From positions 1-19,341 of the IMG/VR virus record IMGVR_UViG_2700989509_000025: DNA of 19,341 nucleotides. One strand, written 5' to 3'. The notes under the pieces are model-generated. The model saw nothing but the letters and a program-made list of their open reading frames with translations, did no database searches and had not been told where the DNA came from. This document shows positions 1 through 18,105 of this stretch, one piece after another. A program made the position numbers and the translations under genes. The stretch's first letter is position 1; each line of letters begins with the position of its first letter. Source of the DNA: a virus (taxonomy: Duplodnaviria > Heunggongvirae > Uroviricota > Caudoviricetes).

Positions 1-1191
1 ATGGCGCAAAATCGCCGTTGCCAGACGGTCGGAAATAATCCCGCGGCGAGCCCATGAACTGAAATGGCTCGCCCTGTCCTGTGACGTCCAGGTGGCTGAG
101 CTGTCACGCCATTTCGAACCGTAATATCCGATACCCGGAATGTCCGGGTCTTCTTCCGGTTTGTTCGTCGGCACATTCACCCCGTTCTCATCCGTCATGA
201 ACGGTACGAAATGGATATTCTTTTCCGTTTTGTTTTTGTAGCTGCCGTACACCGTCTGGTACGTGGATTCGTTCTTCTGCTTCCAGAAATACGTCGTATC
301 TCCACATATCCAGGGAACACCGCCAGCAGAGCCACCGACGCACTGACCTGCCATATCCGCCAGGTCTGCACGGAATTTATCAACCAGCGCACCAAACTGT
401 GCTGCGTGATTTACCGGCGTACCGCCAAAATCAAATTCCCCCTGCATCCACACCACGGCAAACAGCACATTTTTCGGGTTCTTCTTCAGTGCTGCTTTTG
501 TTCGACCGATAAGGTCCTTATACAGCGGCTTGTCCACACCCCAGCGGGTTGAATTCTCCGAGGCACCACTCGCGTCACTGTATGTGCCATCAGCTCCGGT
601 GGTGAACGCTGAACCACCACGACAGCACGGAACCAGCAGAATGCCCGCATTCGCCGGTATAAACGGCAGCAGTTTTTTGGCGATATGCAGCCCCTGCCCC
701 ACGGTTCCGTACTGCCCCTTTGACAGGTCCGCTTTCGGATGGTTAAGGCGGCTCATGTCCTGCACATCATGCAGACAATGGTCCGCCGGAATGATGTCGT
801 TATATTTGCATGCTGCACCGCCCGGTGTCACCGTACTGCGGCGCGCCAGCTGCTTAATACGCAGGTCCGGACGGTCATATGTCTCCGGCAGCGGAAGGCC
901 TTCACCATATGCCATGCTGTTTGACTGCCCCGCCAGAACCACAACAAAGTAATACTCCGGGTCTCTGGTGGCGCTGATTACTGTGCCTTCTCCATCCGAC
1001 GGCTTCACCACAACAGGTGTGCTCACATCACCTTCTGCGACAATCGCCTGAATAAGTGCTGCGCCATCATCCGTATACGAAGAAAACGGCCCGCCGTATG
1101 GTTGCCATCCTTCACGAATTTTTTGAGCAAGTGCATCAGCAAGGTCTGACGGCGACACCGCCCTGACCACATCGTAGTGTTTAAATGCCAT
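1..1191 (-). CDS. NanS-p-like sialate O-acetylesterase (DUF1737-like N-terminus plus SGNH/SASA hydrolase domain); C-terminal end cut by window edge
   Basis: Manually translated open frame from ATG at 1189-1191 (SD GGAGGA just upstream) running to position 1 with no stop; absent from ORF track because no stop in window. Translation begins MAFKHYDVVRAVSPSDLADALAQKIREGWQPYGG and contains VVLAGQSNSM (GQSN block of SGNH hydrolases). Plus-strand ORFs 211..552 and 530..952 lie antisense to it. Confidence 0.7.
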   Translation of the reverse strand, partial: MAFKHYDVVRAVSPSDLADALAQKIREGWQPYGGPFSSYTDDGAALIQAIVAEGDVSTPVVVKPSDGEGTVISATRDPEYYFVVVLAGQSNSMAYGEGLPLPETYDRPDLRIKQLARRSTVTPGGAACKYNDIIPADHCLHDVQDMSRLNHPKADLSKGQYGTVGQGLHIAKKLLPFIPANAGILLVPCCRGGSAFTTGADGTYSDASGASENSTRWGVDKPLYKDLIGRTKAALKKNPKNVLFAVVWMQGEFDFGGTPVNHAAQFGALVDKFRADLADMAGQCVGGSAGGVPWICGDTTYFWKQKNESTYQTVYGSYKNKTEKNIHFVPFMTDENGVNVPTNKPEEDPDIPGIGYYGSKWRDSSATWTSQDRASHFSSWARRGIISDRLATAILRH

Positions 1192-1378
1192 GAATCCTCC
1201 CGGCCGGGATAATGTTGTGAGTCAGATAAGGGGCGGGCTGAAGTCCGGAAGTTACAGGACAATGACAGAAGGAAGACTACAGCCCGCAATACGAAAAAGG
1301 CCGCGCAGTTGCGCAGCCTTATAAACCCTGGTTAAAATCCACACGATAAAAATGACAATGCAAGTATCTCATGCTGTT

Positions 1379-1403
1379 GCCCGAACCTACTCGGGCTTTT
1401 TTT
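1379..1403 (+). terminator. Intrinsic terminator-like hairpin (plus orientation)
   Basis: GCCCGA-acctac-TCGGGC stem-loop followed by TTTTTTT. Confidence 0.5.
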
Positions 1404-1408
1404 GCATG

Positions 1409-1434
1409 TAAAAAGGCTCCTGCGATGAGGAGCC
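1409..1434 (-). terminator. Intrinsic terminator-like hairpin (minus orientation) downstream of the tRNA cluster
   Basis: On minus strand GGCTCCT-catcgc-AGGAGCC followed by TTTTT; sits back to back with the plus-strand hairpin at 1379..1403. Confidence 0.5.
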
Positions 1435-1721
1435 TGGATATATGCCTAATCTCTGTATACAGCATGATGCCGGGTGCCTCCCGGTGAATTCTGCAATGAC
1501 CAGACAGAATCCGCAACTTGCCTATACAATACGCAACCAAACATCTGTCATTATGCCCCGCCGCCCAGGGGGATTCATCATGCAGGATTTTTTTAACAAA
1601 CGCTCAGCATGTCAGGCAACAGTCAACTACCTGAATTGTGAGGCATTTAACATTTCACTGTCCGGTGTCTTTCCTGTAATAAAAAGCCCGCAAAAGAGAG
1701 TCAGGGCAGATAAGTGTGGTG

Positions 1722-1798
1722 TGGCGCGTTGTACTGGATTCGAACCAGTGACCGATTGCTTAGAAGGCAATTGCTCTGTCCGGCTGAGCTAACAACGC
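1722..1798 (-). tRNA. tRNA-Arg (anticodon UCU)
   Basis: Minus-strand read GCGTTGT-TA-GCTC..GAGC-A-ATTGC-CTTCTAA-GCAAT-CGGTC-ACTGG-TTCGAAT-CCAGT-ACAACGC-G-CCA; perfect 7-bp acceptor stem, T-loop TTCGAAT, encoded CCA, anticodon loop CTTCTAA. Confidence 0.8.
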
Positions 1799-1811
1799 AT
1801 GATGCTGATAA

Positions 1812-1888
1812 TGGACTGCCATCGGGGACTTGAACCCCGCACAGCCAGCTTCGAAGGCTGGCGCTCTGTCCCGATGAGCTAATGGCGG
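1812..1888 (-). tRNA. tRNA-Arg (anticodon UCG)
   Basis: Minus-strand read CCGCCAT-TA-GCTC..GAGC-G-CCAGC-CTTCGAA-GCTGG-CTGTG-CGGGG-TTCAAGT-CCCCG-ATGGCAG-T-CCA; cloverleaf fits with one C-A mismatch at acceptor pair 2:71, so boundaries need tRNAscan confirmation. Confidence 0.65.
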
Positions 1889-1897
1889 TATGTGATA

Positions 1898-1973
1898 TGG
1901 TGGCCCTTGCTGGATTTGAACCAGCGACCTGGCGATTATGAGTCGCTCGCTCTCACCACTGAGCTAAAGGGCC
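1898..1973 (-). tRNA. ileZ: tRNA-Ile2 type (anticodon CAU; software will call Met-CAT), ileZ-like phage tRNA
   Basis: Minus-strand read GGCCCTTTAGCTCAGTGGTGAGAGCGAGCGACTCATAATCGCCAGGTCGCTGGTTCAAATCCAGCAAGGGCCACCA; closely resembles recalled E. coli ileX/ileZ-type tRNA; anticodon loop CTCATAA. Confidence 0.8.
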
Positions 1974-2011
1974 GGGAGCAGAATAATAACGGTCCGTAAT
2001 TAATTCCGCAA

Positions 2012-2036
2012 TAAAAAACCCGCTCAATGGCGGGTT
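2012..2036 (-). terminator. Intrinsic terminator between ORF6N gene and tRNA cluster
   Basis: On minus strand ACCCGC-cattga-GCGGGT followed by TTTTTT (plus strand shows A-run 2013..2018 before hairpin). Confidence 0.55.
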
Positions 2037-2131
2037 CTGGTAAAGTTCATGCGCTTGGTTCGCCTCGCGATACAGCTTTGCGAAGCGTACCGGGATTGAA
2101 GCAGTTTATGGCTAAAATTGCAAGAACTTTT

Positions 2132-2743
2132 TTAAAGCTGCATCAGCCTTTCCACCAGTTTATCTCTGCGAACAACAAACCAACCATTGGCTCTCGCCAG
2201 TTCCAGCCATGACTCAAGGGAAATAACAATATCATCATCCCGCAACTGAATTGTGGAAACAGTGACACCGCCTCGCTGATAACAGAGAACTCGCGTGTCG
2301 TAACTTTTCTGGCATGAAACTGGCGCTGACGGATCCTTTTGTCTGAAATAGCAGTCTTCCAGTCTTTCGAACACATCCCACGCCTGATCGGTTTCGAGCA
2401 TTTTGGCATGACGGGCTGCTCCGCGTTCTGTCCAGAGTATGAGGGAGCGGGCTTTCGGGGAAATTTGTAACCCTCTTAAAGATGGTTGCAAATTTTGTGA
2501 GTTACTTAAAGTAACCCGCAAATTTTGTGAGTAGTTTAAAGCTACCCGCAATTCTTTAAGGTCATTACCAACAACTTTGAAAAAGTGTTTCCCTTCAACG
2601 AAGCGTACTTTGTTCTCATGATGATTCTGGCGAATACGCACCGGCTCAGTGCCGTAAAGCTGCGCCAAAAGTTCGGTGGTAATAACAGGAATCTGGTTAT
2701 GGGTGATCGGGGAGAGAGTTTCAACAGAAATTTGAGTTGTCAT
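2132..2743 (-). CDS. ORF6N-domain protein (antirepressor/Roi/Bro-N-like N-terminal DNA-binding domain) with uncharacterised C-terminal domain
   Basis: 203-aa ORF; SD GAGGG about 7 nt upstream of ATG at 2743; N-terminal sequence (KVRFVEGKHFFKVVGNDLKEL ... ISPKARSLILWTERGAARHAKMLETDQAWDVFERLEDCYF) resembles recalled ORF6N-type domains; first gene after the PR'-like promoter and leader terminator. Confidence 0.6.
   Translation of the reverse strand: MTTQISVETLSPITHNQIPVITTELLAQLYGTEPVRIRQNHHENKVRFVEGKHFFKVVGNDLKELRVALNYSQNLRVTLSNSQNLQPSLRGLQISPKARSLILWTERGAARHAKMLETDQAWDVFERLEDCYFRQKDPSAPVSCQKSYDTRVLCYQRGGVTVSTIQLRDDDIVISLESWLELARANGWFVVRRDKLVERLMQL
2461..2560. repeat. Tandem ~30-bp direct repeats (3 full copies plus partial) inside the ORF6N gene, each with a near-palindromic TTTAAAG core
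   Basis: aaatttgtaaccctcttaaagatggttgc / aaattttgtgagttacttaaagtaacccgc / aaattttgtgagtagtttaaagctacccgc / aattctttaag...; translated on minus strand as 10-aa repeats LRVALNYSQN / LRVTLSNSQN / LQPSLRGLQI. Confidence 0.75.
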
Positions 2744-2902
2744 AATGACGCCCTCTGGTGGTTTCTTAATAACTCACCACCGACGACGCCAATCGTCTGG
2801 TGGTGAACTGTGCAGGGTTGGCGTAACCGGGAAACCGACCGGCGCGGATCTCTCCGCCCCCACACAGCCCACCATAATTCAGATGTGCGCGTGCATACGA
2901 CA

Positions 2903-2926
2903 ATAAAAAACACGCTCGCGGCGTGT
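2903..2926 (-). terminator. tR'-like intrinsic terminator of a short late leader transcript
   Basis: On minus strand ACACGC-cgcga-GCGTGT followed by TTTTTTATTG; about 55-75 nt downstream of the PR'-like promoter. Confidence 0.6.
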
Positions 2927-2987
2927 ATCTGTCGCGGTCTCTATCCAGGACGCCAATCCCGACGCCAGATTTTGCTGGCGCGTGAGG

Positions 2988-3017
2988 AATATAGCCCCGG
3001 ATAACAGATTGAGTCAA
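2988..3017 (-). promoter_or_regulatory. PR'-like late promoter (probable site of Q engagement)
   Basis: Minus strand TTGACT (3012..3017) - 18 nt - TATATT (2988..2993); the -35 overlaps the stop codon of the Q-like gene. Confidence 0.6.
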
Positions 3018-3568
3018 CAGACGGTTTTTAGATCCCCGGAAGAGAATGCATCACGCATCGGCAGATAGAGCATAAACTCTGCCATTTTCAACCACGCATC
3101 TATGCGATTACGGCACGTGGCGTAACACCACTCAGGGTGTGAATCATTCAGCAATTCAGCCATTTTTCGCTTAGTCATCCCCCGCCCTTCATATCGTTGC
3201 CGGAGGATACAAATCAATCCTGGGTGTTCTGCCAGCACTTCACTAATCACCCGATCAATGCATAACGCCTCTGCATCAGTACAATGCACCAGCCAGCTTT
3301 TTTGCTTGCCGTTGATCATATCCCGCAAAAAAGCCTCAAGTTCAGGTTTGTCCAGACCTGCTTTTTTCATCCTCCGGAGCGCCTCGTTAATTGCCGTTTT
3401 TGTCAGCTTTTTAGAGGTCAGCAACTGGTTGAACATATTTCCCGTCTTACCGCCGCCAATATACGACCAGCGCCCCCACATGCGCAGTTTTCCCTGAATC
3501 CAGACACTTTCCAGCGTGGTGAGACGAAGGTGTTCCCCGCTTTTGCCTGTATTTGTTGGGTAAATCAT
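3014..3568 (-). CDS. Q-type late antitermination protein (assignment from position and sequence character)
   Basis: ORF track gives 3014..3688; preferred start is internal ATG at 3568 (MIYPTNTGKSGEH...) with SD GGAAGG and ATGA overlap with the upstream gene stop. Lies between nin-region genes and a strong promoter plus short terminator; C-terminal MTKRKMAELL...RNRIDAWL looks like a sigma region-4-like HTH. Confidence 0.6.
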   Translation of the reverse strand: MIYPTNTGKSGEHLRLTTLESVWIQGKLRMWGRWSYIGGGKTGNMFNQLLTSKKLTKTAINEALRRMKKAGLDKPELEAFLRDMINGKQKSWLVHCTDAEALCIDRVISEVLAEHPGLICILRQRYEGRGMTKRKMAELLNDSHPEWCYATCRNRIDAWLKMAEFMLYLPMRDAFSSGDLKTVC

Positions 3569-3855
3569 AAATAACCTTCCTTTCTCCAGATTTCTTGTGT
3601 GCGAAAAACACCTTCTGCATGCATCAGGCGTAATTCTTCTTTGGTGTAATCGCTGGTTTTTACCCGCCCGTCGATTAAATCGTGGCATGAGCTACAGGCA
3701 ATCGCTGCCTGCATATCGTGTGGTTTTGTCGCTGTTCCGCACGTCCCCGCCAGCCTGTAATGCGCCAGCACAGAAGTTTCGGGATTGTGATTGCAGTAGC
3801 CAGGAATTCTGACGGTGCACATCTGCCCCCGCGCCGCTTTACGTAAATCCACCAT
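3565..3855 (-). CDS. YbcO-like (DUF1364) Cys/His-rich putative nuclease of the nin region
   Basis: 96-aa ORF MVDLRKAARGQMCTVRIPGYCNHNPETSVLAHYRL...ACSSCHDLIDGR; resembles recalled DLP12 YbcO; stop overlaps Q start (ATGA). Confidence 0.6.
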   Translation of the reverse strand: MVDLRKAARGQMCTVRIPGYCNHNPETSVLAHYRLAGTCGTATKPHDMQAAIACSSCHDLIDGRVKTSDYTKEELRLMHAEGVFRTQEIWRKEGYL

Positions 3856-4454
3856 TACGCAAACTCCAGTAACTGCGCGGCCACATTTTCGACTTCCTCC
3901 GGAGAGGAAAATTTACGGAACAGGATCCAGTTCCACAGCACATTCAGTACAGATTTATAAACCTGCTGAAACACGGTTTCGTCCATGTTCGCAAATGCGA
4001 TAGATTTTGCCCTGCGCCCACGACTACCATCAGGATAAATATGCTCGGTGTAAAATCCGGCCTGAATGGTTACCCATTCGCGAAAAGCGTCAAAGGACTT
4101 GAGTAAGGCCGTATCCCGGGTTCTGCAAGTCGTAACGGTGTTAAGGTATTGCTCTGCGGCATCACTCAGGGCTGGCGTATGTTCCCGACCTACTGATTCG
4201 CACAGGAAATCAACGAAACCGGACACCAGTTCTCGTTCGCGAGGCGTGATCGCCCCACCGTTCGGAGTCCAGTAATCGAATCCCAGTTGCAGGAGTTTGA
4301 AAAAACGCTTGTGGAATGCGTAGTTACGCACACGCTTAAAGTCTGCGTGTATCCACTCACCGATTTTGATTTGATGCAAAAAATCGCAACTCTCCGGCGT
4401 CGCCGGGAGAAGTAATCCGGAAGAGGTTTGTTTGACCAGTTGTATATGCGCCAT
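3855..4454 (-). CDS. nin-region phage protein of unknown function (possibly DUF1367-type)
   Basis: 199-aa ORF with SD GGAGAA 6 nt upstream of ATG at 4454; stop overlaps next start (TAATG). Family name from recollection only. Confidence 0.55.
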   Translation of the reverse strand: MAHIQLVKQTSSGLLLPATPESCDFLHQIKIGEWIHADFKRVRNYAFHKRFFKLLQLGFDYWTPNGGAITPRERELVSGFVDFLCESVGREHTPALSDAAEQYLNTVTTCRTRDTALLKSFDAFREWVTIQAGFYTEHIYPDGSRGRRAKSIAFANMDETVFQQVYKSVLNVLWNWILFRKFSSPEEVENVAAQLLEFA

Positions 4455-4525
4455 CGTAGTTCTCCGCTGGCGCAGTAGAATGGGTGTTCAGCCCGTTATG
4501 TAGTATACCAGAATTAATGCCAATA

Positions 4526-4777
4526 CTAACAGGATGCTCTGACTCGCAATTCATCCAGCAGTTTATCATTTCCCATAATGTCACTTACCCTCATCGGTAA
4601 AAAAATTGCCTTTCGACCATTACGATACATCATTGATTTTGGGGTTTCAGGGAAGTAATCCATTTCGACTATAACTGACAGGTCATCACGACGTATGACT
4701 GCGTATTTGCAACTAAATAGTTTCTTTATTTTTTCCACGATGCCTCCGAGTTTATAAGTACAAACGGTTATATCCAC
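4526..4777 (-). CDS. Hypothetical small protein (start uncertain)
   Basis: 83-aa ORF in AT-rich spacer; codon at 4777 is GTG with no clear SD; internal ATGs also lack SD. Confidence 0.25.
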   Translation of the reverse strand: MDITVCTYKLGGIVEKIKKLFSCKYAVIRRDDLSVIVEMDYFPETPKSMMYRNGRKAIFLPMRVSDIMGNDKLLDELRVRASC

Positions 4778-4920
4778 ATAGAGACAAAAATATTAATCTG
4801 AAAAATATTTATTTCACGCCGTATATTTGATTATTTAATGTGCAGGTACAATGACTTTTATTTTTTGTTGTGTATATAATCAAATATATGGTTATTTTTC
4901 ACCCTGCGCATTCAGCGCGC

Positions 4921-4946
4921 AACAAAAAACCCGCCGAAGCGGGTTT
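4921..4946 (-). terminator. Intrinsic terminator downstream of hok
   Basis: On minus strand AAACCCGC-ttcg-GCGGGTTT followed by TTTTTTGTTG. Confidence 0.6.
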
Positions 4947-5013
4947 AGTGCGGGTGCGTTAAGGATGCCTGACACATGAGAGGTGGCGAGGGATTTCTCC
5001 CCCGCCTGGTCTC

Positions 5014-5169
5014 TTACTCCTCAGGTTCGTAAGCTGTGAAGACAGCGACCTCCGTCTGGCCGGTTCGGATTCGTACCTCGCAGAGGTCTTTCCTCGTTAC
5101 CAGTGCCGTCACTATGACGGTTAAACAGATGACGATCAGGGCGATTAACATCGCCTTTTGCTGCTTCAT
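5014..5169 (-). CDS. hokD: Hok/Gef-family type I toxin (HokD/RelF-like small membrane peptide)
   Basis: 51-aa product MKQQKAMLIALIVICLTVIVTALVTRKDLCEVRIRTGQTEVAVFTAYEPEE matches recalled HokD; SD AAGGAG 9 nt upstream of ATG at 5169. ORF track extends in frame to 5226 (19 extra codons). Confidence 0.8.
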   Translation of the reverse strand: MKQQKAMLIALIVICLTVIVTALVTRKDLCEVRIRTGQTEVAVFTAYEPEE

Positions 5170-5345
5170 AGCCTGCTTCTCCTTGCCTTTCGGCACGTAA
5201 GAGGCTAACCTACGTGTGTAGAGCATAGATATGGCCTCAGATTAATGTTAAGCGTCTTGCCGGACGCGTAATGTTAACTGGGGCTTTTCTCTATCTGCCT
5301 TTTGGTGTTCATGCCTGAGGCAGATAGCCTCAAGCACCCGCAGCA

Positions 5346-5374
5346 ATTCTAACTATCCAATAGATCAATGCCAA
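5346..5374 (-). promoter_or_regulatory. Candidate sigma70 promoter for hok mRNA
   Basis: Minus strand TTGGCA (5369..5374) - 17 nt - TAGAAT (5346..5351); would give a ~170-nt structured leader containing a 9-bp inverted repeat (CTATCTGCC...GGCAGATAG). Confidence 0.4.
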
Positions 5375-5726
5375 CTTCTTTTCCTGCAACATCTCTCATC
5401 ATAAGTGACCCAAATTCATCCAATCAGCACAAAAGAAACATTTAAAGCGTGAATGCTACCGAACGTTCATTTCAATTACATCGTTTTGATTTTTAACAGT
5501 TTTCACCTCAACAAATCAAATGGCATTAGCATTCATCATGGAAGAAAGACTGATAAAAATGATCATTTTCAATGACTTATGATCACACCGGGTATTGCCA
5601 AGTCATTCCTTTTACGCCAGGATACCCACAAGTGAGTAGTCGAGGAGAGTTTGCCAATTTTTGCGATATAAATTTCAATGCCCGAAGAACCATTAATTGT
5701 TAATTGATTCTGTATAAGGTATTAAC

Positions 5727-6824
5727 ATGACAATTTCATATATTCCTATTCTGAAAGCGAAACGTTCTGAGTTATCAGCTTTATCGCAGCTATCCATTGA
5801 AAAGAAATCAAAAATTTTGCCATTACTCGAAATTGAACCAGTGCCAATTGACCCTGATTCAGGTATTGCCTTAAAGAGTTATAACGAGACTCTTATAGAG
5901 TTCGGAAAGAAAGTCTCAAAATCTTGCTCAGATATGCAAGGTGTTTATATTGATGGATTATTAATTGAAGAGCATTTTATTTCTCCTGAAGATCATTACC
6001 CTATAATAAATGCGGTTAATCAAGTTAGAGATATGGGGATAAGAGTTATTCCTGTCAGTTCACCAACTCGCCCATCTAACTATAAAAGAGCGATTGATGA
6101 ATTAATGCAGAATGAAATATGCTTGAGATTAACCACGTTAGATCTGGTTAACCCACAATTAATAACGCATTACATTAATCATCTGGGAATTCCTTTATCA
6201 AATATTGATATAATTATTGACTTAAGAGATGAGTTAACCGAGGATAAAATTAATTCCGGCGAACTATATACTTTGGCAATGGGATTGATAAACAATCTGG
6301 CGCACCTCAATGAATACAGAAAAGTGATTCTTTCTGGGGGTTCATTTCCTACAGATCTCAGTGATATTTCTGTTGGTCTATATTCTCAACCTCGAATCGA
6401 GTGGATTTTATGGCAGAGTTTAATGAATAGAAAAGAACTTGCCAGAAATGTGATTTATAGTGATTATGGAGTACAGCACCCCGACTTTAATAGGCTTTCG
6501 ACGCGATTCCCTAGCGTATCTGCCAGCGTCAGATACTCTGGAGATAATGACTTTTGGGTATTTCGAGGAAGAGTAGCTAATCGCTTTGGTTATGAACAAT
6601 ATGGTAAACATAGTGAGGATATTCTTGCTCATCGAGAATATTCAGGGCCTACATTCTGTGCGGGAGATAGAGACATAGAATATTATGCAAACGAGTATCA
6701 AGCCTACAAAGCCAATCCCTCTGGTAACTATAAATTTGGTAGCCCAGAGGTATGGCGTAGGATTGGGCAAAACCATCACATAACTAAGGTTGTTGAGCAA
6801 CTCGCCACTCTTTACGGGCTTTAA
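5727..6824 (+). CDS. Beta-family-like protein (P4 Beta / sce7725-type, by recollection); candidate defense component
   Basis: 365-aa ORF in markedly AT-rich DNA; N-terminus MTISYIPILKAKRSELSAL; SD AAGG about 8 nt upstream; 3' end overlaps the convergent gene by 41 bp. Confidence 0.6.
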   Translation: MTISYIPILKAKRSELSALSQLSIEKKSKILPLLEIEPVPIDPDSGIALKSYNETLIEFGKKVSKSCSDMQGVYIDGLLIEEHFISPEDHYPIINAVNQVRDMGIRVIPVSSPTRPSNYKRAIDELMQNEICLRLTTLDLVNPQLITHYINHLGIPLSNIDIIIDLRDELTEDKINSGELYTLAMGLINNLAHLNEYRKVILSGGSFPTDLSDISVGLYSQPRIEWILWQSLMNRKELARNVIYSDYGVQHPDFNRLSTRFPSVSASVRYSGDNDFWVFRGRVANRFGYEQYGKHSEDILAHREYSGPTFCAGDRDIEYYANEYQAYKANPSGNYKFGSPEVWRRIGQNHHITKVVEQLATLYGL

Positions 6825-7362
6825 GTTTAACTCGAACAGCTTCACGAAGCTCGCCAACATCCATACTATTGGCGAGTTTTGACCATAAGACGCGTTTAGG
6901 TTTATTTTTCAAATTCTGTAGCTCCCCTACATCACTTAATAGGGAAAGCAATTCATCTTTCCAAAGAAGCATTGTTAAGGAAAGTTTGTCCACTTGTGGA
7001 TTCAACTTGCTAGTTCGAATTGTTTTTAAATGGATACCTTGCCGTGCACCTTGCGTAACTTGCTTTATCCCCCACCATGATGGAACTATGCTTAAAGCAT
7101 CATAAAGATGGCAATCAGAGACAACCAAAGTTACTTTATCCATCACTGATGAGTAATGTTGCACCTGCGCTGGTAATCTGAGCAAGTTATCACTCTTGCT
7201 CTTCAACTCATAACCATGTATAAGCCCATTGATCACTGCTATATCAGCTCTGCTAGCCCCTAGATTCATCGTAAACTCATCAATGATTAGGGTGTCAGGA
7301 TCTTTATGATGATCTCTCAGAATCTTGGCATGCACAGCCTTTCTTACATCAATGTCTCTCAT
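6784..7362 (-). CDS. sce7726-type protein with PD-(D/E)xK-like nuclease motif; candidate defense component
   Basis: 192-aa ORF, AT-rich; contains D (in LIIDEF) followed about 20 aa later by E-L-K (GYELKSKSD), the spacing of PD-(D/E)xK cores; also WWGI and LLW blocks I associate with sce7726-type proteins. Weak RBS. Confidence 0.55.
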   Translation of the reverse strand: MRDIDVRKAVHAKILRDHHKDPDTLIIDEFTMNLGASRADIAVINGLIHGYELKSKSDNLLRLPAQVQHYSSVMDKVTLVVSDCHLYDALSIVPSWWGIKQVTQGARQGIHLKTIRTSKLNPQVDKLSLTMLLWKDELLSLLSDVGELQNLKNKPKRVLWSKLANSMDVGELREAVRVKLKARKEWRVAQQP

Positions 7363-7684
7363 ACCATAGTTGCGCTTTCATCGACTCTCTCAAGCCATGA
7401 TTCTATATCATGGTTCGCATGAATGCCATTTGATATGACCAGTGGTTAAACATTGCACAGAAAAGTGGATGTGTATTTTAACAAAAGCAATGACGGCTAA
7501 CCATGTTGGTATGTCGATAAAATGTTTCAACGTAAGCATTATCTGTTCCGCCCTTTCGGGCGGCCTCCTGATGTTCTGAGGGTGCAGAAATCCCTCCGGT
7601 TAAGGATTAAATTTTATTTACAGAACTGAATTTAATTATTCAGATATACGTATCTGTAACCTTACTAACCTACTCACTGGATGC

Positions 7685-8158
7685 CTATTTCATAAAAATA
7701 ATCCAGTGGGTTTTATCGTTTTTTCCTGTTCGTTGACCGATAACAGGTTTTCTGTCGGTCAGTGCCAATATCTGGCGAACAGGTATTTGCGTTTCATTCC
7801 ATTTAAAAATCAGAACGCCGTATGGACGCAACACACGAAAGGCTTCTTTAAATCCCTGCCGCAAATCATCACGCCAGGTATCTTTATTCAGCCGTCCATA
7901 TTTCTTTCCCATCCAGGCGTTATCACCAACACGCTCAAGATGCGGAGGATCGAATATAACCATCGAAAAAGATGCGTCTGCAAATGGTAGTGCACGAAAA
8001 TCAGCTATCAGATCAGGACTGATAATCAGGCGTCGTCCATCACACAATGTGTGCTCTTCCTTTCTGATATCGCTAAATATCGCCCGGTCGTCATTCTTAT
8101 CGAACCAGAACATGCGACTGCCACAGCACATATCAAGAATGGTTGCCGGTGCACTCAC
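7685..8158 (-). CDS. Small phage DNA methyltransferase (Dam-like, N6-adenine or N4-cytosine class)
   Basis: 157-aa ORF with GTG start preceded by AGGAGG; motif I-like ILDMCCGSR and motif IV-like VIFDPPHL; GTGA overlap with upstream gene. Confidence 0.65.
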   Translation of the reverse strand: MSAPATILDMCCGSRMFWFDKNDDRAIFSDIRKEEHTLCDGRRLIISPDLIADFRALPFADASFSMVIFDPPHLERVGDNAWMGKKYGRLNKDTWRDDLRQGFKEAFRVLRPYGVLIFKWNETQIPVRQILALTDRKPVIGQRTGKNDKTHWIIFMK

Positions 8159-8571
8159 TGCGCTACCTCCTGAAAATTACCCTGATAGAAAGCCAGTACA
8201 CGCTGCATAGCTTCGCTCTTCCGGCACTCGCGACAGATTATATTCAGGCGCCTGTCGTAGCGGCGTATTTCTCCGTCTGGTAATGAATAAACCAGGTCCG
8301 GGTCGCTCTTTTTTTTCACTGCTGCTTTCGACATCTTTTTGCGGGCCTTTATCCAGTCCTTACGTGCCTGTTCAGACGGAAATAACCCGTAGCCGGAGTT
8401 GTATAAATCGCCACTGGCAACCAGCTCTCTGGCAAGAACACTCATCAGATATCTTGTCGCACCTGTCTTGGCTTCCAGTTGCCGTAACGTCTCGCGACCG
8501 CTCAGACGTACAAGTTCAACAACCTGCCCTTTAATTTTTTCCCGCTCTTCTGGTGTAAATACTTTTGCCAT
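8155..8571 (-). CDS. Phage hypothetical protein
   Basis: Track ORF 8155..8586 uses TTG; preferred start is ATG at 8571 preceded by GGAGG (8 nt); 138 aa, basic, C-terminal ICRECRK. Confidence 0.55.
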   Translation of the reverse strand: MAKVFTPEEREKIKGQVVELVRLSGRETLRQLEAKTGATRYLMSVLARELVASGDLYNSGYGLFPSEQARKDWIKARKKMSKAAVKKKSDPDLVYSLPDGEIRRYDRRLNIICRECRKSEAMQRVLAFYQGNFQEVAQ

Positions 8572-8586
8572 AAGCGCCTCCGGCAA

Positions 8587-9357
8587 TCACTTTTCCGATA
8601 CAACACGGCGGGAAGAATCAGTAATCTGTCGAACAATATCCCGGTGCTTGTTCAGCTCCCGCAGCGCGGCGCAGACTCGCTCCCACTTCTGAACATCACT
8701 TTTCGCCCTGCGCAGCGCCAGGTTTGCCCTGCGAAGGGACGGAAAAATCAGCTCATCTGCTTGCGTTTCGGTAAACGATGGCAACGGCTGCACAATGTCC
8801 GCCACAGTTTCTGTTTTAATTTCTTCCTGTGTTGCGGCTTCCCGGACTGGTAACGCAGCACCTGCTGGCTGAGGAAAGGCCTTACCATCACTTTCCGTTA
8901 CCAGCGCGGCTTTCGGCTCTGCTGGTAAATTATCGCCCGGCATGCAGTAACGAAATCTACCGTTCTGATTAACGCGTGCCAGCCGCCCCGTTGCGGTTAC
9001 CACCGCCAGCGTGGAAGCAACCTTGCGAGTACTGACACCGAACTTACCCGCTATTTCTTCACAGGTTTTAGCCCCCTCCTGAGCGATAAACTCAATCATC
9101 ATGTTAGCGCTAACTTTTGGAGCGACCTCTTCGGTCAGCATATCCTGTGTTTCAGATTTTACTGGCCGCTCTTCGGTTACCCGGGATTCACCTTCGACAG
9201 CCAGAAACCAGGTGTGACCCGTTTTATCAACAACGCCATTTTTTTTGAGCTCCCACAGTTCGTTGATAACTTCTTCACGGCTGATATCAATTCGTGCCGC
9301 CAGTTCAACAGAATTGGCTTTTCCCATCGCTTTCAGTGCATGTAATACGGTTTCCAT
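8587..9357 (-). CDS. Phage protein with N-terminal winged-helix-like domain (possibly DUF1627-type)
   Basis: 256-aa ORF, SD GAGGTGA 8 nt upstream; N-terminus METVLHALKAMGKANSVELAARIDISREEVINELWELKKNG looks like a wHTH. Confidence 0.55.
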   Translation of the reverse strand: METVLHALKAMGKANSVELAARIDISREEVINELWELKKNGVVDKTGHTWFLAVEGESRVTEERPVKSETQDMLTEEVAPKVSANMMIEFIAQEGAKTCEEIAGKFGVSTRKVASTLAVVTATGRLARVNQNGRFRYCMPGDNLPAEPKAALVTESDGKAFPQPAGAALPVREAATQEEIKTETVADIVQPLPSFTETQADELIFPSLRRANLALRRAKSDVQKWERVCAALRELNKHRDIVRQITDSSRRVVSEK

Positions 9358-9382
9358 CGAAAATTCACCTCGTTAAAAATTC

Positions 9383-10123
9383 TCACATACCCTGACGTCC
9401 AACGTTTGACCGCCAGCTCTCCCAGTTAAAATTCACCCAACGACCACCGTTCATGGTCATCCGGTCCATAATCCTCTCACCAAGAAGCGTGCTCATTGCG
9501 GCATGATTCAGGTTTGTCAGCATCCCGACACTGCGCAGTGATGCCGTCCGGCGGTCAACAATCTGGTGCAGTACCACCTGCTCGTTTTTCGTCTCACGCT
9601 GGATGCCAATTTCGTCAAGAACCAGGAGGTCCACTTCGCACAGTTCACGCAAAAATTTTTCGCCTGACTGCCCGTCGTCATAGCTGGCGTGCAGGGCGCT
9701 CATAACATCAGCCACGGTAACCACAATCACTGTCTGACCGTCTTTCAACAGGCGATTCCCGATAGCTGCCGCTAAGTGATTCTTCCCGGTACCAGGTTTT
9801 CCGCTGAACGCAAAATTTGTACACCCGGTCATCAGTTCATCGGCGATGGATTTCGCCTGGCTTAACGCGTATCGCTGGCCGTCGTTCTGCACCTGGTAAT
9901 TCGCAAACGAGCATTTACGGTGCAACGGCTGGATGCCTGAGCGATTCAGAATTTTTTCCACCCGCAACTGACAATTCAGGCGGTTGATCTCCTCGCTACG
10001 TTTCTGGCCTTCAGCAAGTTGCCACTCGCGCCACTCCGCAACCGTTCTGAATGGGGCGGTTACATGTGGTGGGGTCAGTCTGCGGATACGCTCCAGAACG
10101 CCTCCTGTCGCAATATTTTTCAT
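9383..10123 (-). CDS. DnaC-like replicative helicase loader (IstB-like AAA+ ATPase; YdaV-like)
   Basis: 246-aa ORF with Walker A FSGKPGTGKNHLAAAIG and Walker B DLLVLDEIG; immediately follows the replisome-organizer gene. Confidence 0.8.
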   Translation of the reverse strand: MKNIATGGVLERIRRLTPPHVTAPFRTVAEWREWQLAEGQKRSEEINRLNCQLRVEKILNRSGIQPLHRKCSFANYQVQNDGQRYALSQAKSIADELMTGCTNFAFSGKPGTGKNHLAAAIGNRLLKDGQTVIVVTVADVMSALHASYDDGQSGEKFLRELCEVDLLVLDEIGIQRETKNEQVVLHQIVDRRTASLRSVGMLTNLNHAAMSTLLGERIMDRMTMNGGRWVNFNWESWRSNVGRQGM

Positions 10124-10129
10124 GGCCTG

Positions 10130-10918
10130 TTACCCCCTGAAGCCTGGCGGGATCGCACTGTCCGGCAACGAGACGGTGTTAACCTGTCGGAGCAACGTCT
10201 CAGGCCGAACACCTTTCGGTGCGAACAAGCCCTGGTATTCATTGGCAATGCTGTGTCGAATCACCTGCTCAGGTGTAAAACCCTGCTGACGGAATTTTTC
10301 CAGTTCCCGTATCGCCCCGTTAGCGCCCTGCTCCGTTCGAATCGGTTTTCGCAATGCCTGCCTGAACTGAACCCACTCATGCCAGAGTGTTTCCGGCAAC
10401 CAGTCAGGCAGCTCGATAGCCTCCGGCTCGAATTTTTTAGACGCTCGTTTTTGGCGAGGGGGATTTAGGGGGAGATCAGTATTTATATCTTCCTCTTCCT
10501 CTTCCTCTGGTAACGCTTTTTGATCCGTTTGTGTAACGCTGCCAGCGTTACCTTTTCGTTTCAGTTCGCGTATTTTTGTAACTCGCTCGTTTGTAACCGC
10601 CCGTTTTTTAGAGCTTTTTCCGTTATGACGTTCAAAGTTAGGTAGAGAAAGCCCACCGTCATTTTCGACCAGCCATCCAACCTGAATTAACGCATCAGCA
10701 AAACCAGCCATAAAAGTGATGCGATCTATTGCACTTTTTGTAACGCCGCGAGCGTTACAATCTGCATTACCGTCTATCATTTGTTGATCCGCCCATGCCC
10801 AGAAGCGAATAACCTTCCCTAATGCGGCATCTGGATCAATATTCAGAATCTCAGCAAGCCTGAATATTTCCGGCTTATCCGGCGTAATAACCTCGAGCTT
10901 TATCCAGTTTGAAGCCAT
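10130..10918 (-). CDS. Replication initiator / replisome organizer (lambda O-like function; YdaU-like)
   Basis: 262-aa ORF with acidic linker PEEEEEEDIN; position between cII-like gene and DnaC-like loader; contains two copies of a 19-bp palindrome, with a third just upstream. Confidence 0.65.
   Translation of the reverse strand: MASNWIKLEVITPDKPEIFRLAEILNIDPDAALGKVIRFWAWADQQMIDGNADCNARGVTKSAIDRITFMAGFADALIQVGWLVENDGGLSLPNFERHNGKSSKKRAVTNERVTKIRELKRKGNAGSVTQTDQKALPEEEEEEDINTDLPLNPPRQKRASKKFEPEAIELPDWLPETLWHEWVQFRQALRKPIRTEQGANGAIRELEKFRQQGFTPEQVIRHSIANEYQGLFAPKGVRPETLLRQVNTVSLPDSAIPPGFRG
10533..10551. repeat. 19-bp palindrome GTAACGC-N5-GCGTTAC, copy 1 (inside initiator gene)
   Basis: gtaacgctgccagcgttac; extra GTAAC half-sites at 10510..10516, 10578..10582, 10593..10597. 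Confidence 0.8.
10740..10758. repeat. 19-bp palindrome GTAACGC-N5-GCGTTAC, copy 2 (inside initiator gene)
   Basis: gtaacgccgcgagcgttac. Confidence 0.8.
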
Positions 10919-10931
10919 TTGTTTTCACCTT

Positions 10932-10950
10932 GTAACGCTCGCAGCGTTAC
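10932..10950. repeat. 19-bp palindrome GTAACGC-N5-GCGTTAC, copy 3 (noncoding, 14 nt upstream of initiator start, next to its SD)
   Basis: gtaacgctcgcagcgttac. Confidence 0.8.
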
Positions 10951-10995
10951 ATTTAACTGATACCGAACAAAACAATCCGGCACGATTAATTTCAA

Positions 10996-11418
10996 TCAAT
11001 GCACTACGACAGAATCGCCGGGCGACCCACCACCGCTGAAATGTGCTTTCCGGTAAACGGCCTGGACTGCATCATCATGCGCATCAATTGCCGTACTCAA
11101 CGCTTCCTGCGCCGCCAGTAATGCACGGCGTTCCAAGGTATCGAAGATGCAGAGTCGGTGACGCAGCTCGCGCGGAAGAATTGCCAGAACCGCAGGGATC
11201 AGTTTCTGAATTTTTTCCCTTTGCGCTTTCGTTTCACCTTTCAACCAACGGTGATAGATATTCTGCTGATTGTTCCAGTCCTTGCCTGGTACAAGGGGCA
11301 ATTCGCCGCCCCCCTGGCGCAGATATTCTTCAGTAATTGCGTTAGCGACCCACGCCTGCCCTTTTTCGGCTGCCAGGGCTAACAACACTGATTCGATGTG
11401 CTCATGCCTGATTTTCAT
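10996..11418 (-). CDS. YdaT-like protein (cII-position gene of Rac-type immunity region)
   Basis: 140-aa ORF directly downstream of cro-like gene with ATGA overlap; same position and size as recalled Rac ydaT. Confidence 0.6.
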   Translation of the reverse strand: MKIRHEHIESVLLALAAEKGQAWVANAITEEYLRQGGGELPLVPGKDWNNQQNIYHRWLKGETKAQREKIQKLIPAVLAILPRELRHRLCIFDTLERRALLAAQEALSTAIDAHDDAVQAVYRKAHFSGGGSPGDSVVVH

Positions 11419-11657
11419 GAATCAACCGCTCCTATGCTGTTTTCGCTATGCTTACCGTCTGGGGGGAATACATCGTCAAGTCCACAATGAGCGCCAAGCC
11501 GATTAAGGGTAGAAACAATTTTTCTGCACTCCTCTAGTCCAGGGGTACGAAAATTTGCTTCGTAATTTGCCAGTCGGCTTTGTATCCACCCTAACTGAAC
11601 AGCAAGTTGTCTTTGAGACAGCCCAAGCTGTTTTCGATATGTTGAAATTTTGTTCAT
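11415..11657 (-). CDS. Cro-like HTH regulator (YdaS-like)
   Basis: 80-aa ORF, HTH segment LGLSQRQLAVQLGWIQSRLANYE; SD GGAGG 7 nt upstream; divergent from repressor gene. Confidence 0.7.
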   Translation of the reverse strand: MNKISTYRKQLGLSQRQLAVQLGWIQSRLANYEANFRTPGLEECRKIVSTLNRLGAHCGLDDVFPPDGKHSENSIGAVDS

Positions 11658-11753
11658 TGAAAACCTCCGATGACAATTTTAAACACATCTTGTGTTATAT
11701 GGTCAAGCTGTTTTGTGTTTTGTGTAAATCACGATTCGTGATACAAGGATGCA
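11658..11753. promoter_or_regulatory. Divergent immunity promoter/operator region
   Basis: Minus-strand promoter TTGACC (11701..11706) with TAAAAT/TTAAAA around 11676..11682; palindromes AACACA-tct-TGTGTT (11682..11696) and ATCACGA-t-TCGTGAT (11728..11742). Confidence 0.55.
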
Positions 11754-12173
11754 ATGGAAAAAGAAAACGAAAAAATTGCCGCTAGTAGGCTCAATGACAA
11801 AATTGCAATGCGTCTTAAAGAGCGCAGGCAGAAGCTTGGTTTATCTCAAGGAAAACTTGCTGAAATCTGCGGATGGACGCAATCGCGTATAGGTAACTAT
11901 GAGGCGGGTAGCAGAAATGTTGGAGTGCATGACGCTGTCGTATTGGGAAAGGCACTTGGCATATCTCCTCCTGAGCTCCTCTTTGGAGAACAGGAATCTT
12001 CTGAATTGTGGTTAAATGAATCCCAACGAAAACTTCTTGAGTTGTTTAACCAGCTACCGGGCTCAGAACAACAACGAATGATTGAGCTATTTGAAGTCCG
12101 GCTAAAAGAAATCGATGAGTATGTAGAAAAATATTTGAGAGGCAGGCTTAAAGATAATCCCCCACCGGAGTAA
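11754..12173 (+). CDS. Prophage repressor, XRE-family HTH (RacR-position), no obvious S24 peptidase domain
   Basis: 139-aa ORF, HTH LGLSQGKLAEICGWTQSRIGNYEAG; SD AAGGA upstream; divergent from cro-like gene. Confidence 0.7.
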   Translation: MEKENEKIAASRLNDKIAMRLKERRQKLGLSQGKLAEICGWTQSRIGNYEAGSRNVGVHDAVVLGKALGISPPELLFGEQESSELWLNESQRKLLELFNQLPGSEQQRMIELFEVRLKEIDEYVEKYLRGRLKDNPPPE

Positions 12174-12203
12174 TGATCTTGCTATCACAGTAATATGCCA
12201 ATC

Positions 12204-12228
12204 AGCCCGCTATCAGCGGGCTTTTTTT
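12204..12228 (+). terminator. Intrinsic terminator after repressor gene
   Basis: AGCCCGC-tatca-GCGGGCT followed by TTTTTTT. Confidence 0.7.
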
Positions 12229-12270
12229 GTACCATCATCATATGACACCCACCACAAAACACATTTCGTG

Positions 12271-12299
12271 TTGACACAAGAAAACGCATTGTGTTTAAT
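12271..12299 (+). promoter_or_regulatory. PL-like early-left promoter with overlapping operator-like palindromes
   Basis: TTGACA (12271..12276) - 17 nt - TTTAAT (12294..12299); flanked by AACAC-atttc-GTGTT and ACACAAG...TTGTGT inverted repeats. Confidence 0.55.
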
Positions 12300-12479
12300 A
12301 AGCATATCCAAACAACGCCCCACCAGAGAACGGCAGGACAATACCTCGAGTTATCCAGCCACTGAACAGGGCTAAGTAGCCAGCCTGAGGCATACGAACA
12401 TGACGGCAGTTGTTGATTGATACAAAGCGCAGTAGATAAAACGTTCCGCCACCCGGCGTTAAGGGGAAATGAGGTCAAC

Positions 12480-12632
12480 ATGGATACTATCGATCTTGGC
12501 AACAACGAATCTCTGGTATGTGGCGTGTTTCCCAATCAGGACGGCACATTCACCGCCATGACGTATACCAAAAGCAAATCGTTTAAAACCGAAGCTGGCG
12601 CACGTCGCTGGCTTGCCAAAAATACCAGCTAA
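12480..12632 (+). CDS. Small early-left protein (YdaF-like)
   Basis: Internal ATG at 12480 of track ORF 12417..12632, preceded by GAGG; 50 aa MDTIDLGNNESLVCGVFPNQDGTFTAMTYTKSKSFKTEAGARRWLAKNTS. Confidence 0.45.
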   Translation: MDTIDLGNNESLVCGVFPNQDGTFTAMTYTKSKSFKTEAGARRWLAKNTS

Positions 12633-13040
12633 ACCATTTATTGGATTAATTCAATATTCTTGCTGTAGGGGTATAGCCGAGGCCACCAAAGCCCGGAGGT
12701 GGTGAAATAAAACCGGGCACAACACGAAGGCGCATTTCCGGTATCCATAAAGAGTCGGTCTTGTCTGTTAAATTTAAATGGTGGGAGTGCGCCTCCGGTT
12801 GTAAATAACGACATTGCTATGTGTAGTCTTTGGCGGCATCAGTTCTACTCCGTGGCTGCCCTGCCGCCCCTTTTTAAAGTGAATTTTGTGATGCGGTGAA
12901 TGCGGCTAAGCGCACGCGGCACAGTTAAAAGCATCAGTGTTATGGGTGGATTATCCGGCGTTAATTGTTAACTGGTTAACGTCACCTGGAGGCACCAGGC
13001 ACCGCATCGACAAAATTCATTTGTAAAAATGGAGATAATT

Positions 13041-13262
13041 ATGATTGCTCATCACTTCGGAACTGATGAAATACCACGTCAGTGTGTGACTCCTGGCGAT
13101 TATGTTCTTCATGAAGGTCGGACATATATCGCCTCGGCAAACAATATTAAAAAGCGAAAACTTTATATTCGTAGCCTGACTACAAAAACATGCATTTCTG
13201 ACTGCATGATTAGAGTCTTCCTCGGTCGTGATGGTTTACCTGTAAAGGCGGAGTCATGGTAA
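13041..13262 (+). CDS. kilR: KilR-like cell-division inhibitor
   Basis: 73 aa from ATG at 13041 (SD GGAG); [35 protein letters not shown]... matches recalled Rac KilR. Confidence 0.75.
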
Positions 13263-13432
13263 TGACTAAGAAAATAAAATGTGCTTATCACCTTTGCAAT
13301 AAAGAAATTGAAGAAAGCAAAATCATTACAAGACCACTTCATTTCATGCGTGGAGTTATACCAACGACGGAAATGAAAAAATATTGTAGTGAAATCTGTG
13401 CCGAAAAAGACCAGATGGCACACGAACTTTAA
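13262..13432 (+). CDS. YdaE-like small Cys-rich (zinc-binding) protein
   Basis: Hand-found 56-aa ORF (below track cutoff): [56 protein letters not shown]; start overlaps kilR stop (TAATG). Confidence 0.55.
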   Translation: MTKKIKCAYHLCNKEIEESKIITRPLHFMRGVIPTTEMKKYCSEICAEKDQMAHEL

Positions 13433-13506
13433 TTAACTGACTATCCGAAACTGAATTTATGCCAGCAATGGCAGGGATTCGCTCAACCTTAATTAAGGAG
13501 AAAAAC

Positions 13507-13782
13507 ATGATTACCAGTTATGAAGCCACTGTTGTTACTACTGATGACGTTGTTCACGAAGTTATCCTGGAAGGAAAACTCATTGGCTACGTGATTAAAA
13601 CAGAAAATAAAGAAACCCCATTCACCGTGGTTGATATCGACGGTCCATCAGGCAACGTTAAAACACTTCACGAAGGTGTAAAAAAAATGTGCATGGTGCA
13701 CATCATAAAGAATATTCCAGCAGAGAAAAAAGACAGGATTATGGCAACTCTGATTGAGATGGAACAAAAAGGCGAAATCTGA
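13507..13782 (+). CDS. racC: RacC-like protein
   Basis: 91 aa from ATG at 13507 preceded by AAGGAG; MITSYEATVVTTDDVVHEVILEGKLIGYVIK... matches recalled Rac RacC. Confidence 0.75.
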   Translation: MITSYEATVVTTDDVVHEVILEGKLIGYVIKTENKETPFTVVDIDGPSGNVKTLHEGVKKMCMVHIIKNIPAEKKDRIMATLIEMEQKGEI

Positions 13783-13882
13783 ATGGGAAAAAGGCCTGCA
13801 CTCAGCGCAGGCCTGAGTCAAGAACCCGGGACATTTATTCATCACTCGCAATAATTTTAATCTGAGTTGAGGTTAAAAAACA

Positions 13883-17357: not shown

Positions 17358-17413
17358 TTCAGCCTGGCGGTGTAATGCACCGCCAACTTGAAATATTTTT
17401 TATGAGAAAAATT

Positions 17414-17789: not shown

Positions 17790-17888
17790 ATTGCATTGTA
17801 TTCAAATTAAAACTTCATAGCTGATTATTAATAATCAACATCGGGCGTCAATTTCAGTCTAACATTGGCGCCTGCCAGAGGTGATGCG

Positions 17889-18104: not shown

Positions 18105-18105
18105 T

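Follow-up and report, generated by a model that had tools for sequence, protein, structure and literature searches.

Tandemly amplified palindromes within the coding sequence of a phage ORF6N-domain gene

The 19,341-nucleotide stretch of phage DNA analyzed here (IMG/VR record IMGVR_UViG_2700989509_000025, positions 1 to 19,341; called the window below) carries on its minus strand an antirepressor-type gene whose product has an ORF6N domain, and within this gene we find an array of three in-frame 30-bp (10-codon) units, at window positions 2462–2551, each built around a palindrome that is itself translated. Inverted repeats seldom overlap coding sequence, because two stretches of protein are then constrained at once, and a coding palindrome that is also a coding variable number tandem repeat (VNTR), conserved at the homologous site of a phage gene family and tandemly amplified, is unusual. 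The comparisons described below indicate that the palindromic unit is a feature of the ORF6N gene family as a whole and that the protein sequence of the loop it encodes is shaped by a process acting at the level of DNA. Our preferred explanation, to which we give slightly less than an even chance, is that an intragenic quasi-palindrome lying in a permissive protein loop has been multiplied into a coding VNTR and would be sustained by hairpin-templated correction.

Tandem Repeats Finder reports window 2488–2551 as a tandem repeat with a period of 30, 2.1 copies, 85% matches and a score of 86. Units 1 and 2 of the full array (unit coordinates are listed in Table 1) are identical at 25 of 30 positions, and unit 3, the most diverged, matches either of the others at 18 of 30; none of 2000 shuffles of the gene gave 25/30 identity between neighboring 30-mers. 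The original prediction of three to four direct repeats of about 30 bp, lying in the ORF6N coding sequence and translating to 10-residue repeats, is borne out for three in-frame units, but the supposed fourth copy at 2552–2581 has just 13/30 matches and is not a repeat. Around the three dyad centers (2538, 2508 and 2478) 10, 11 and 11 of 13 positions, respectively, form Watson-Crick pairs, and three such centers were obtained in 0 of 2000 shuffles of the gene. The unit cores start differently (GTAGC.., GTTAC.. and CCATC..); the near-palindromes that had been described as centered on TTTAAAG are real, although that heptamer occurs in only one unit and the other two have CTTAAAG (plus strand). 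A second set of dyads is present at the CAAAATTTG junctions between units, since a palindromic unit is repeated in tandem. None of 200 dinucleotide shuffles folds as well as the repeat region, whether folding is computed for RNA (z = −2.7) or for DNA (z = −2.9). Searches of the 19-kb window with the 30-mer, a check that had been suggested, and with each of the three cores, allowing 2–3 mismatches, returned self-matches only.

As anticipated, repeat copy number varies among homologous genes, whose lengths differ by multiples of 30 bp. Alleles with 1, 2, 3 or 4 units occur in otherwise near-identical genes, and the same classes are found among protein clusters (examples are given in Table 1, where L numbers denote compared loci). 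The units lie head to tail, their length is a multiple of three and their number is polymorphic, so that the array is an in-frame coding VNTR (minisatellite). The 300 nt that precede the array are 100% identical between the 3-unit and 4-unit alleles; units have therefore been gained or lost singly and recently. Unit types RVALNY, RVTLSN and QPSLRG are each also found as single-unit alleles, and in the E. coli lineage they stand head to tail. Arrays that arose independently in Pectobacterium (L030) and Symbiopectobacterium (L015) have a period of 33 bp; the three-helical-turn periodicity to which attention had been drawn is thus not conserved, and helical phasing was rejected as an explanation. 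Identity of the window gene to the 2-unit alleles L001 and L004 jumps from 76–93% upstream of the array to 96–100% downstream of it, and relative to these two alleles there is a mosaic breakpoint at the array start (window ~2540–2560, gene nt ~190–210). L004 is record PP818812.1, “Actinobacillus phage vB_Apl-pPE4”, whose DUF1367-YbcO-Q-ORF6N block is 84–100% identical to E. coli lambdoid prophage DNA; an Actinobacillus host is odd for this DNA, and the record may be mis-assigned or contaminated.

The array thus combines repetition and symmetry, but which of the two is general in the gene family? The comparison took in 80 ORF6N loci on contigs sampled at one genome per species, a further 215 on viral contigs and 9 in phage records. 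In most of the members examined an inverted repeat encodes the loop between strands FFKV (residues 54–58) and SLILW (100–105), the same loop being bounded by conserved FFK and LWTERG motifs. The arms are 7–22 nt long and the spacer 1–5 nt, and the palindrome sequence differs from lineage to lineage while the arms stay Watson-Crick complementary; 51 distinct hairpin types were collected. Carriers include Enterobacterales, Acinetobacter, Burkholderiales and Desulfovibrio and, more weakly, phages of Firmicutes, among them TP901-1 with its ORF6. In a MAFFT alignment of 47 sequences that was not fitted to structure, 84.4% of pair positions are paired, compared to 59.9% in shuffles (0 of 500 reach the observed value) and 29–44% in slid registers; 12 of the 13 pairs have changes on both sides, with a covariation score of 0.587 versus 0.202. 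RNAalifold independently predicts the same helix, with compensatory changes in 9/9 pairs. Although the loop segment makes up 21% of gene length, 96 of 120 genes have their strongest palindrome there, and palindromes with scores of 9 to 11 or more are 17–22 times denser in it than in 203 kb of flanking phage DNA.

Single genomes can carry several ORF6N paralogs, each with its own palindrome, and one and the same allele is found in more than one phage setting, downstream of the antiterminator gene Q in the window and in the nin region of Shiga toxin (Stx) phages. Abundant alleles include weak palindromes (score 5.5) in intact genes, and of two broken gene copies (L087 and L069, too few to generalize from) one has kept its palindrome and in the other it is degraded. 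A search of the available literature on ORF6N, on KilA-N with palindromes and on antirepressor repeats found no description of the palindrome or the array.

The peptide encoded by the loop is not what is conserved. The outcome that would have pointed to the protein, a peptide held constant by divergent codons, is not what the homologs display: among distant ones peptide and DNA sequence both diverge, and dyad symmetry alone is kept, synonymous sites included. The original view that this is not purely a protein-level repeat is upheld by the way in which codons face each other across the dyad. Val faces Asn, Tyr, His or Asp, and in sequences read directly the third base of the Val codon complements the first base of its partner (GTA/TAC, GTT/AAC and GTG/CAC); further complementary codon pairs are ACT/AGT, TCT/AGA and CCA/GGG. 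When the peptide was held fixed and synonymous codons were resampled, the mean palindrome score fell from the observed 9.4 to 5.2; in 43 of the 99 unique sequences the observed score was not attained by any of 200 resamplings. The effect is weaker in Firmicutes, where at most 5 of 200 resamplings reach the observed score in 9 of 21 sequences; the dyad center is at the same place in 17 of these 21. The center falls on codon position 1 or 2 according to lineage (L253, L294, L295 and L299 versus L255, L256 and L301) at the same place in the protein alignment, and the palindrome has therefore shifted by one base relative to the reading frame. These sequences are, in short, coding palindromes: short-spacer inverted repeats within an open reading frame (ORF) with both arms translated and with complementarity at synonymous sites beyond what the peptide requires.

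The mismatches that remain between arms also bear on the level at which the symmetry is kept. Among the 51 hairpin types they are G-T 15, A-C 15 and other 51, which is the random 1:1:4 proportion, although these are modest numbers (81 mismatches) and are confounded by codon constraints; in 48 sequences the corresponding counts are 36, 32 and 71. Complementarity often reaches to a single central base. Since G-T wobble pairs are not in excess among the mismatches, the symmetry looks DNA-like rather than RNA-like, and it speaks for true reverse-complement identity, whether by arm copying or as symmetry of duplex DNA, and against an mRNA hairpin kept for its stability. Measured against what is usual for a conserved structured RNA, the element has the compensatory changes but neither G-U enrichment on the transcribed strand nor an Rfam match.

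How might such an element persist? The palindrome is probably maintained by hairpin-templated correction, either quasi-palindrome template switching or arm-to-arm conversion, in which a change in one arm would be reverted or copied into the other arm, so that codon pairs, and hence amino acid pairs, would change together. Gain and loss of units would come from slippage during replication, or from unequal exchange, at the CAAAATTTG(CGG) junctions that the units share, and these junctions may also mark the mosaic breakpoint between alleles. The protein would tolerate this, since the palindrome lies in a surface loop that is permissive and has low predicted order, and a dedicated binding protein would not be needed. 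The random mismatch spectrum, together with intact genes whose palindromes are degraded, argues for a non-essential, self-maintained element. Correction of E. coli quasi-palindromes by template switching is an established mechanism (PMC7202029), the overabundance of short inverted repeats in coding DNA has been ascribed to template-switch correction (Ladoukakis and Eyre-Walker 2008, as cited in PMC4060949), and arm conversion has been proposed for coding palindromes in the mitochondria of Nematomorpha (PMC6649704).

Several considerations weigh against this explanation. The mismatch-type test, which is part of its support, has the limits given above. Covariation is usually read as selection for function, and retention at one homologous position across phyla, the strongest argument for selection, would be equally expected from it. 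Correction alone, if it could hold palindromes for so long, should show itself in many other permissive coding loops. Finally, certain mismatches, such as CGG opposite TCA, are retained from lineage to lineage, and these, with the abundant weak-palindrome alleles, mean that any drive is not overwhelming.

The strongest competing explanation, a serious candidate that we nonetheless consider unlikely, is that selection maintains the palindrome as a structure-specific cis-acting DNA element, in the form of a single-stranded DNA hairpin or an extruded cruciform recognized by its shape. Its reader may be the winged-helix-like ORF6N domain, giving autoregulation, or junction-processing enzymes, giving a recombination hotspot, with tandem copies strengthening the effect. 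Covariation at a conserved position across phyla, strict Watson-Crick symmetry that fits DNA over RNA, and the presence of the element with the gene in every context and paralog are all as this explanation predicts, as is the coincidence of the mosaic junction with the array. In addition, HK022 Roi, which belongs to the same Bro network, reportedly binds a site within its own gene. Arms of 10–16 nt, spacers of 1–5 nt and an A+T-rich center fit the usual criteria for cruciform-forming repeats, which in E. coli are mostly at gene ends and not within ORFs (PMC6060812). Against this explanation, common alleles with degraded palindromes are intact genes, the structural model of the protein is only moderate (below), and arms as short as these seldom extrude in vivo. 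The fullest form of this idea, which we regard as rather improbable, is that the codons of the DNA-binding “wing” loop in ORF6N genes, in phages of Proteobacteria through to those of Firmicutes, contain an ancient cis-acting hairpin or cruciform; recognized by its shape, perhaps by the ORF6N domain itself, it would serve for autoregulation or promote recombination, with a strength tuned by tandem amplification.

Less probable still is an mRNA hairpin that takes part in the tight c4/IsrK-type control of the operon and could act on translation speed, on Rho-dependent polarity when the upstream ORF is untranslated or through RNase III cleavage. The RNAalifold helix with its compensatory changes and the folding of the window segment as RNA agree with such a role, C4, IsrK or sRNA-Xcc1-type RNAs lie directly upstream of the gene here and at five other loci (Table 1), and translation-coupled control of the homologous Gifsy-1 anrP is documented (PMC4825925). 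On the other side, G-U pairs are not in excess over A-C and other mismatches, unlike in selected RNA helices, the complementarity often extends to within 1 nt of the center, where a hairpin loop could not use it, and the element has no terminator-like tail and no Rfam family; at gathering and permissive thresholds Rfam gave only sub-threshold chance matches on the array and none on the hairpins of 11 loci. TP901-1-type phages carry the palindrome as well, and we know of no c4-type leader in them. Duplex energies with C4 and IsrK are no better for the repeat region than for other parts of the gene, in a test that is uninformative with such long sequences.

It is very improbable that the units are an array bound by a single sequence-specific protein, whether for packaging, partition or regulation as in the original prediction or as an iteron-like origin. 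The repeats are indeed tandem, dyad-symmetric and in frame within coding DNA like the lambda ori in gene O, share a CAAAATTTG junction every 30 bp and vary in copy number, as do the iterons of lambda (4) and Stx phages (6) (PMC7466680). Iterons are nearly identical, however, and here the unit cores differ and have no further copy in the window; the gene is not one for replication, partition or packaging, one allele sits in different phage backbones, paralogs in one genome have different palindromes, the period is 33 bp in other lineages, and what the family keeps is symmetry and not sequence. A purely protein-level repeat, a structural or binding peptide under selection with incidental DNA symmetry, is hardly credible even though the units do translate to 10-residue repeats and the loop may be the “wing” of a DNA-binding fold, since the peptide is not conserved, partner first bases complement synonymous third bases of Val codons, the palindrome is lost on synonymous resampling and the repeat region is predicted with very low confidence.

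Other candidates were rejected on inspection. A −1 frameshift site, U_UUA_AAC, is in phase in unit 1, but the heptamer is absent from the other units and from homologs; a LexA box (CTGT-N8-ACAG) does not fit the ACAG...CTGT arms found in one subfamily, whose orientation and spacing are both wrong; and no antisense ORF spans the array, the central TTA codons being TAA stops on the opposite strand. A promoter and terminator scan found neither within the array, and only the IsrK promoter and terminator upstream of it.

The host gene encodes a 203-residue AnrP-like protein and is annotated in identical E. coli records as “ORF6N domain-containing protein”. Its Pfam PF10543 match scores 68.8 bits (cut-off 27.8) and aligns residues 12–115 with profile positions 3–86; the approximately 20 extra residues therefore correspond to two extra units. 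An AlphaFold2 model built from a 35-sequence alignment is of moderate quality (predicted local distance difference test, pLDDT, 61), with a fairly confident predicted core (strands 13–22, helices 23–43, strand 54–58, helix 59–71, strand 100–105 and helices 106–133) and a pLDDT below 50 for residues 72–91, which belong to units 2 and 3. No relative with a solved structure was found by sequence search. Several lineages have independently taken up 10–30 extra residues in this loop. The C-terminal half of the domain (window residues ~99–133, RSLILWTERGAARHAKMLETDQAWDVFEKLEDCYF) is near-invariant from Enterobacterales to Desulfovibrio and Rhodospirillales, which at 45–60% overall identity is unusually strong conservation for a phage accessory protein (all ORF6N loci).

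The gene lies in an operon with the features of isrK-orf45-anrP: IsrK and C4 RNAs, an upstream ORF with an AUGA overlap and a Q-like gene further upstream (Table 1). Salmonella ORF6N proteins of 185 residues are 82% identical to the window protein across the domain, a comparison that covered proteins other than AnrP SL2578. The N-terminal ORF6N module, 97–100% identical, is found too in “ant” of the Stx phages, a nin-region gene in which it is joined to other C-terminal domains, and to judge from this the module is mobile and is not tied to a single genomic position. A leader resembling that of P1 immI, with C4, IsrK or sRNA-Xcc1-type RNAs directly upstream of ORF6N genes in the window and in several other hosts, together with the antirepressor-type gene, looks like a conserved mobile module.

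Table 1. Features of the ORF6N gene and its surroundings, with repeat alleles and palindromes of homologs (positions are those of the window unless a locus is named)
Feature	Position or source	Strand	Details
Unit 1	2522–2551	−	Codons L65–N74, LRVALNYSQN; dyad center 2538; 15-nt core GTAGCTTTAAACTAC at 2531–2545
Unit 2	2492–2521	−	Codons L75–N84, LRVTLSNSQN; dyad center 2508; perfect 15-nt core GTTACTTTAAGTAAC
Unit 3	2462–2491	−	Codons L85–I94, LQPSLRGLQI; dyad center 2478; core CCATCTTTAAGAGGG; most diverged unit
Extended palindrome around unit 2	2489–2507/2509–2527		19-nt arms, 84% complementary, 1-nt center
Extended palindrome around unit 3	2461–2477/2479–2495		17-nt arms, 88% complementary, 1-nt center
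1-unit allele	phi345		Loop NLRVTFSYLQISPK
2-unit allele	L001, L003, L007		RVALNYSQN-LQPSLRGLQI
2-unit allele	L004		RVTLSNSQN-LQPSLRGLQI
3-unit allele	This window, VT2-Sakai		Units 1-2-3
4-unit allele	O157:H7 strains L002, L005		Unit 2 twice, exact copy
Palindrome	Acinetobacter		Left arm AATTTGCGACTGACTT, spacer a, right arm AAGTCAGTCGCAAATT
Palindrome	Roseospira		Left arm CCGAGCAGAGGGTCTT, spacer a, right arm AAGACCCTCTGCTCGG
Palindrome	Pectobacterium		Left arm ACAGAGTCACTA, spacer a, right arm TAGTGACTCTGT
Palindrome	Pseudomonas		Left arm AACAGCCCCGATA, spacer a, right arm TATCGGGTCTGTT
Palindrome	Lactococcus phage TP901-1 ORF6		Left arm ACAACATCCAAA, spacer a, right arm TTTGGATGTAGT
Palindrome	Bacillus phage Carmel_SA		Left arm CGACCTGAATA, spacer a, right arm TATTCAGCTCG
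ORF6N-domain gene, antirepressor-type, AnrP-like	2132–2743	−	203 aa; ORF list; Pfam PF10543
ORF upstream of ORF6N gene	2740–2913	−	57 aa; stop overlaps ORF6N start (ATGA)
Antisense-RNA leader of operon	2796–2994	−	Rfam gathering-score matches
C4 RNA	2796–2879	−	Rfam score 66.7 versus 45
IsrK RNA	2905–2981	−	Rfam score 75.5 versus 50
c4 a1/b1 targets	2942–2994	−	Rfam
Promoter-like site	3017–2988	−	Promoter/terminator scan
IsrK terminator	2926–2910	−	Promoter/terminator scan
Q-type antiterminator gene (DUF1133/Phage_antitermQ)	3014–3688	−	Upstream of ORF6N gene; Pfam
tRNA-Met, tRNA-Arg, tRNA-Arg	1722–1973	−	Downstream of ORF6N gene
C4/IsrK/sRNA-Xcc1-type RNAs at other loci	L002 1990–2175; L015 654–738; L030 1381–1465; L033 810–893, 1381–1465; L187 437–521		

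Elsewhere in the window, a hok-type toxin ORF (5014–5226) and a sok antisense RNA match (5164–5339) together occupy 5014–5339 on the minus strand and adjoin a Rem-like ORF (4526–4777) and a DUF1367 gene, an order typical of Qin-like prophages. There are full-length RNA matches to RalA, the antitoxin RNA of the RalR system (17607–17785, minus strand), and to DicF (12818–12869, plus strand), and downstream of the tRNA cluster a match to the small RNA AgvB (anti-GcvB; 1344–1403, plus strand) abuts one to STnc100 (1404–1612, minus strand). Two short tandem repeats were also noted, TCTTCC × 3.5 at 10488–10508 and a 14-bp unit × 2.2 at 10575–10606.

In these genes the palindrome dictates which amino acid pairs face each other in the loop, and its sequence has changed more than 50 times across phyla. 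Should correction be what holds it, the palindrome would offer a clear example from nature of a mutational process that has steered protein sequence over long periods, and a system in which template switching and slippage in phage genes could readily be measured. Should selection hold it instead, genes that decide whether a prophage is induced, those of Stx phages among them, would contain a control or recombination element not described before; recognition by shape in the full form set out above would make this a new class of structure-specific control element, intrinsic to genes of temperate phages. Either way, ant alleles of Stx and related prophages can be typed simply by their copy number of 1–4 units.

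How does the ORF6N palindrome compare with systems already known? Rickettsia palindromic elements, which are mentioned in PMC6649704, are inserted in frame in protein genes, and like the ORF6N units they are palindromic DNA translated within a host protein at permissive sites; they are, however, mobile repeats that belong to a single sequence family, lie dispersed and decay with time, whereas the ORF6N palindrome is not dispersed (there is no other copy in the window) and is ancestral to its gene family. The Gifsy-1 antQ-isrK-orf45-anrP operon of Salmonella resembles the window in having a Q-like gene, IsrK and its terminator, a short ORF ending in AUGA and an antirepressor-type gene, a likeness of layout; its downstream gene encodes an antirepressor-like protein under translational control, and that work concerned the leader RNA and describes no palindrome or repeat in anrP (PMC4825925). 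The ori iterons in gene O of lambda and Stx phages are tandem 19-bp imperfect inverted repeats in coding DNA, and their number, 4 versus 6 between related phages, adds residues to the protein (PMC7466680). They differ from the ORF6N array in being near-identical, bound by the product of the gene that contains them, placed beside an A+T-rich region and present once per genome in an initiator gene; the ORF6N units have differing cores and no known binder, lie in an antirepressor-type gene and can be present in several copies per genome.

Further parallels are to DNA in which one arm of an inverted repeat templates, or is proposed to template, the other. E. coli thyA, the lacZ quasi-palindrome reporters and the T4 rIIB hotspots are likewise imperfect inverted repeats with short spacers, at which template switching raises arm complementarity and gives simultaneous complementary changes (PMC7202029); these are laboratory mutational events, and the overabundance of short inverted repeats (6–9 bp) in the coding DNA of prokaryotes, as relayed in PMC4060949, is a weak genome-wide statistic. 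The ORF6N palindrome is in contrast strong, conserved in position and represented by more than 50 sequence variants. In the mitochondria of Nematomorpha, as here, inverted repeats lie in coding sequence, both arms are translated and degenerate positions keep complementarity, and it has been proposed there that template switching actively converts one arm to match the other, the need for any function being called into question (PMC6649704). Those repeats are perfect, up to 284 bp long, scattered over many genes and gained or lost between species, while the ORF6N palindrome is 15–45 bp long, often imperfect, kept in one homologous loop across phyla and tandemly amplified.

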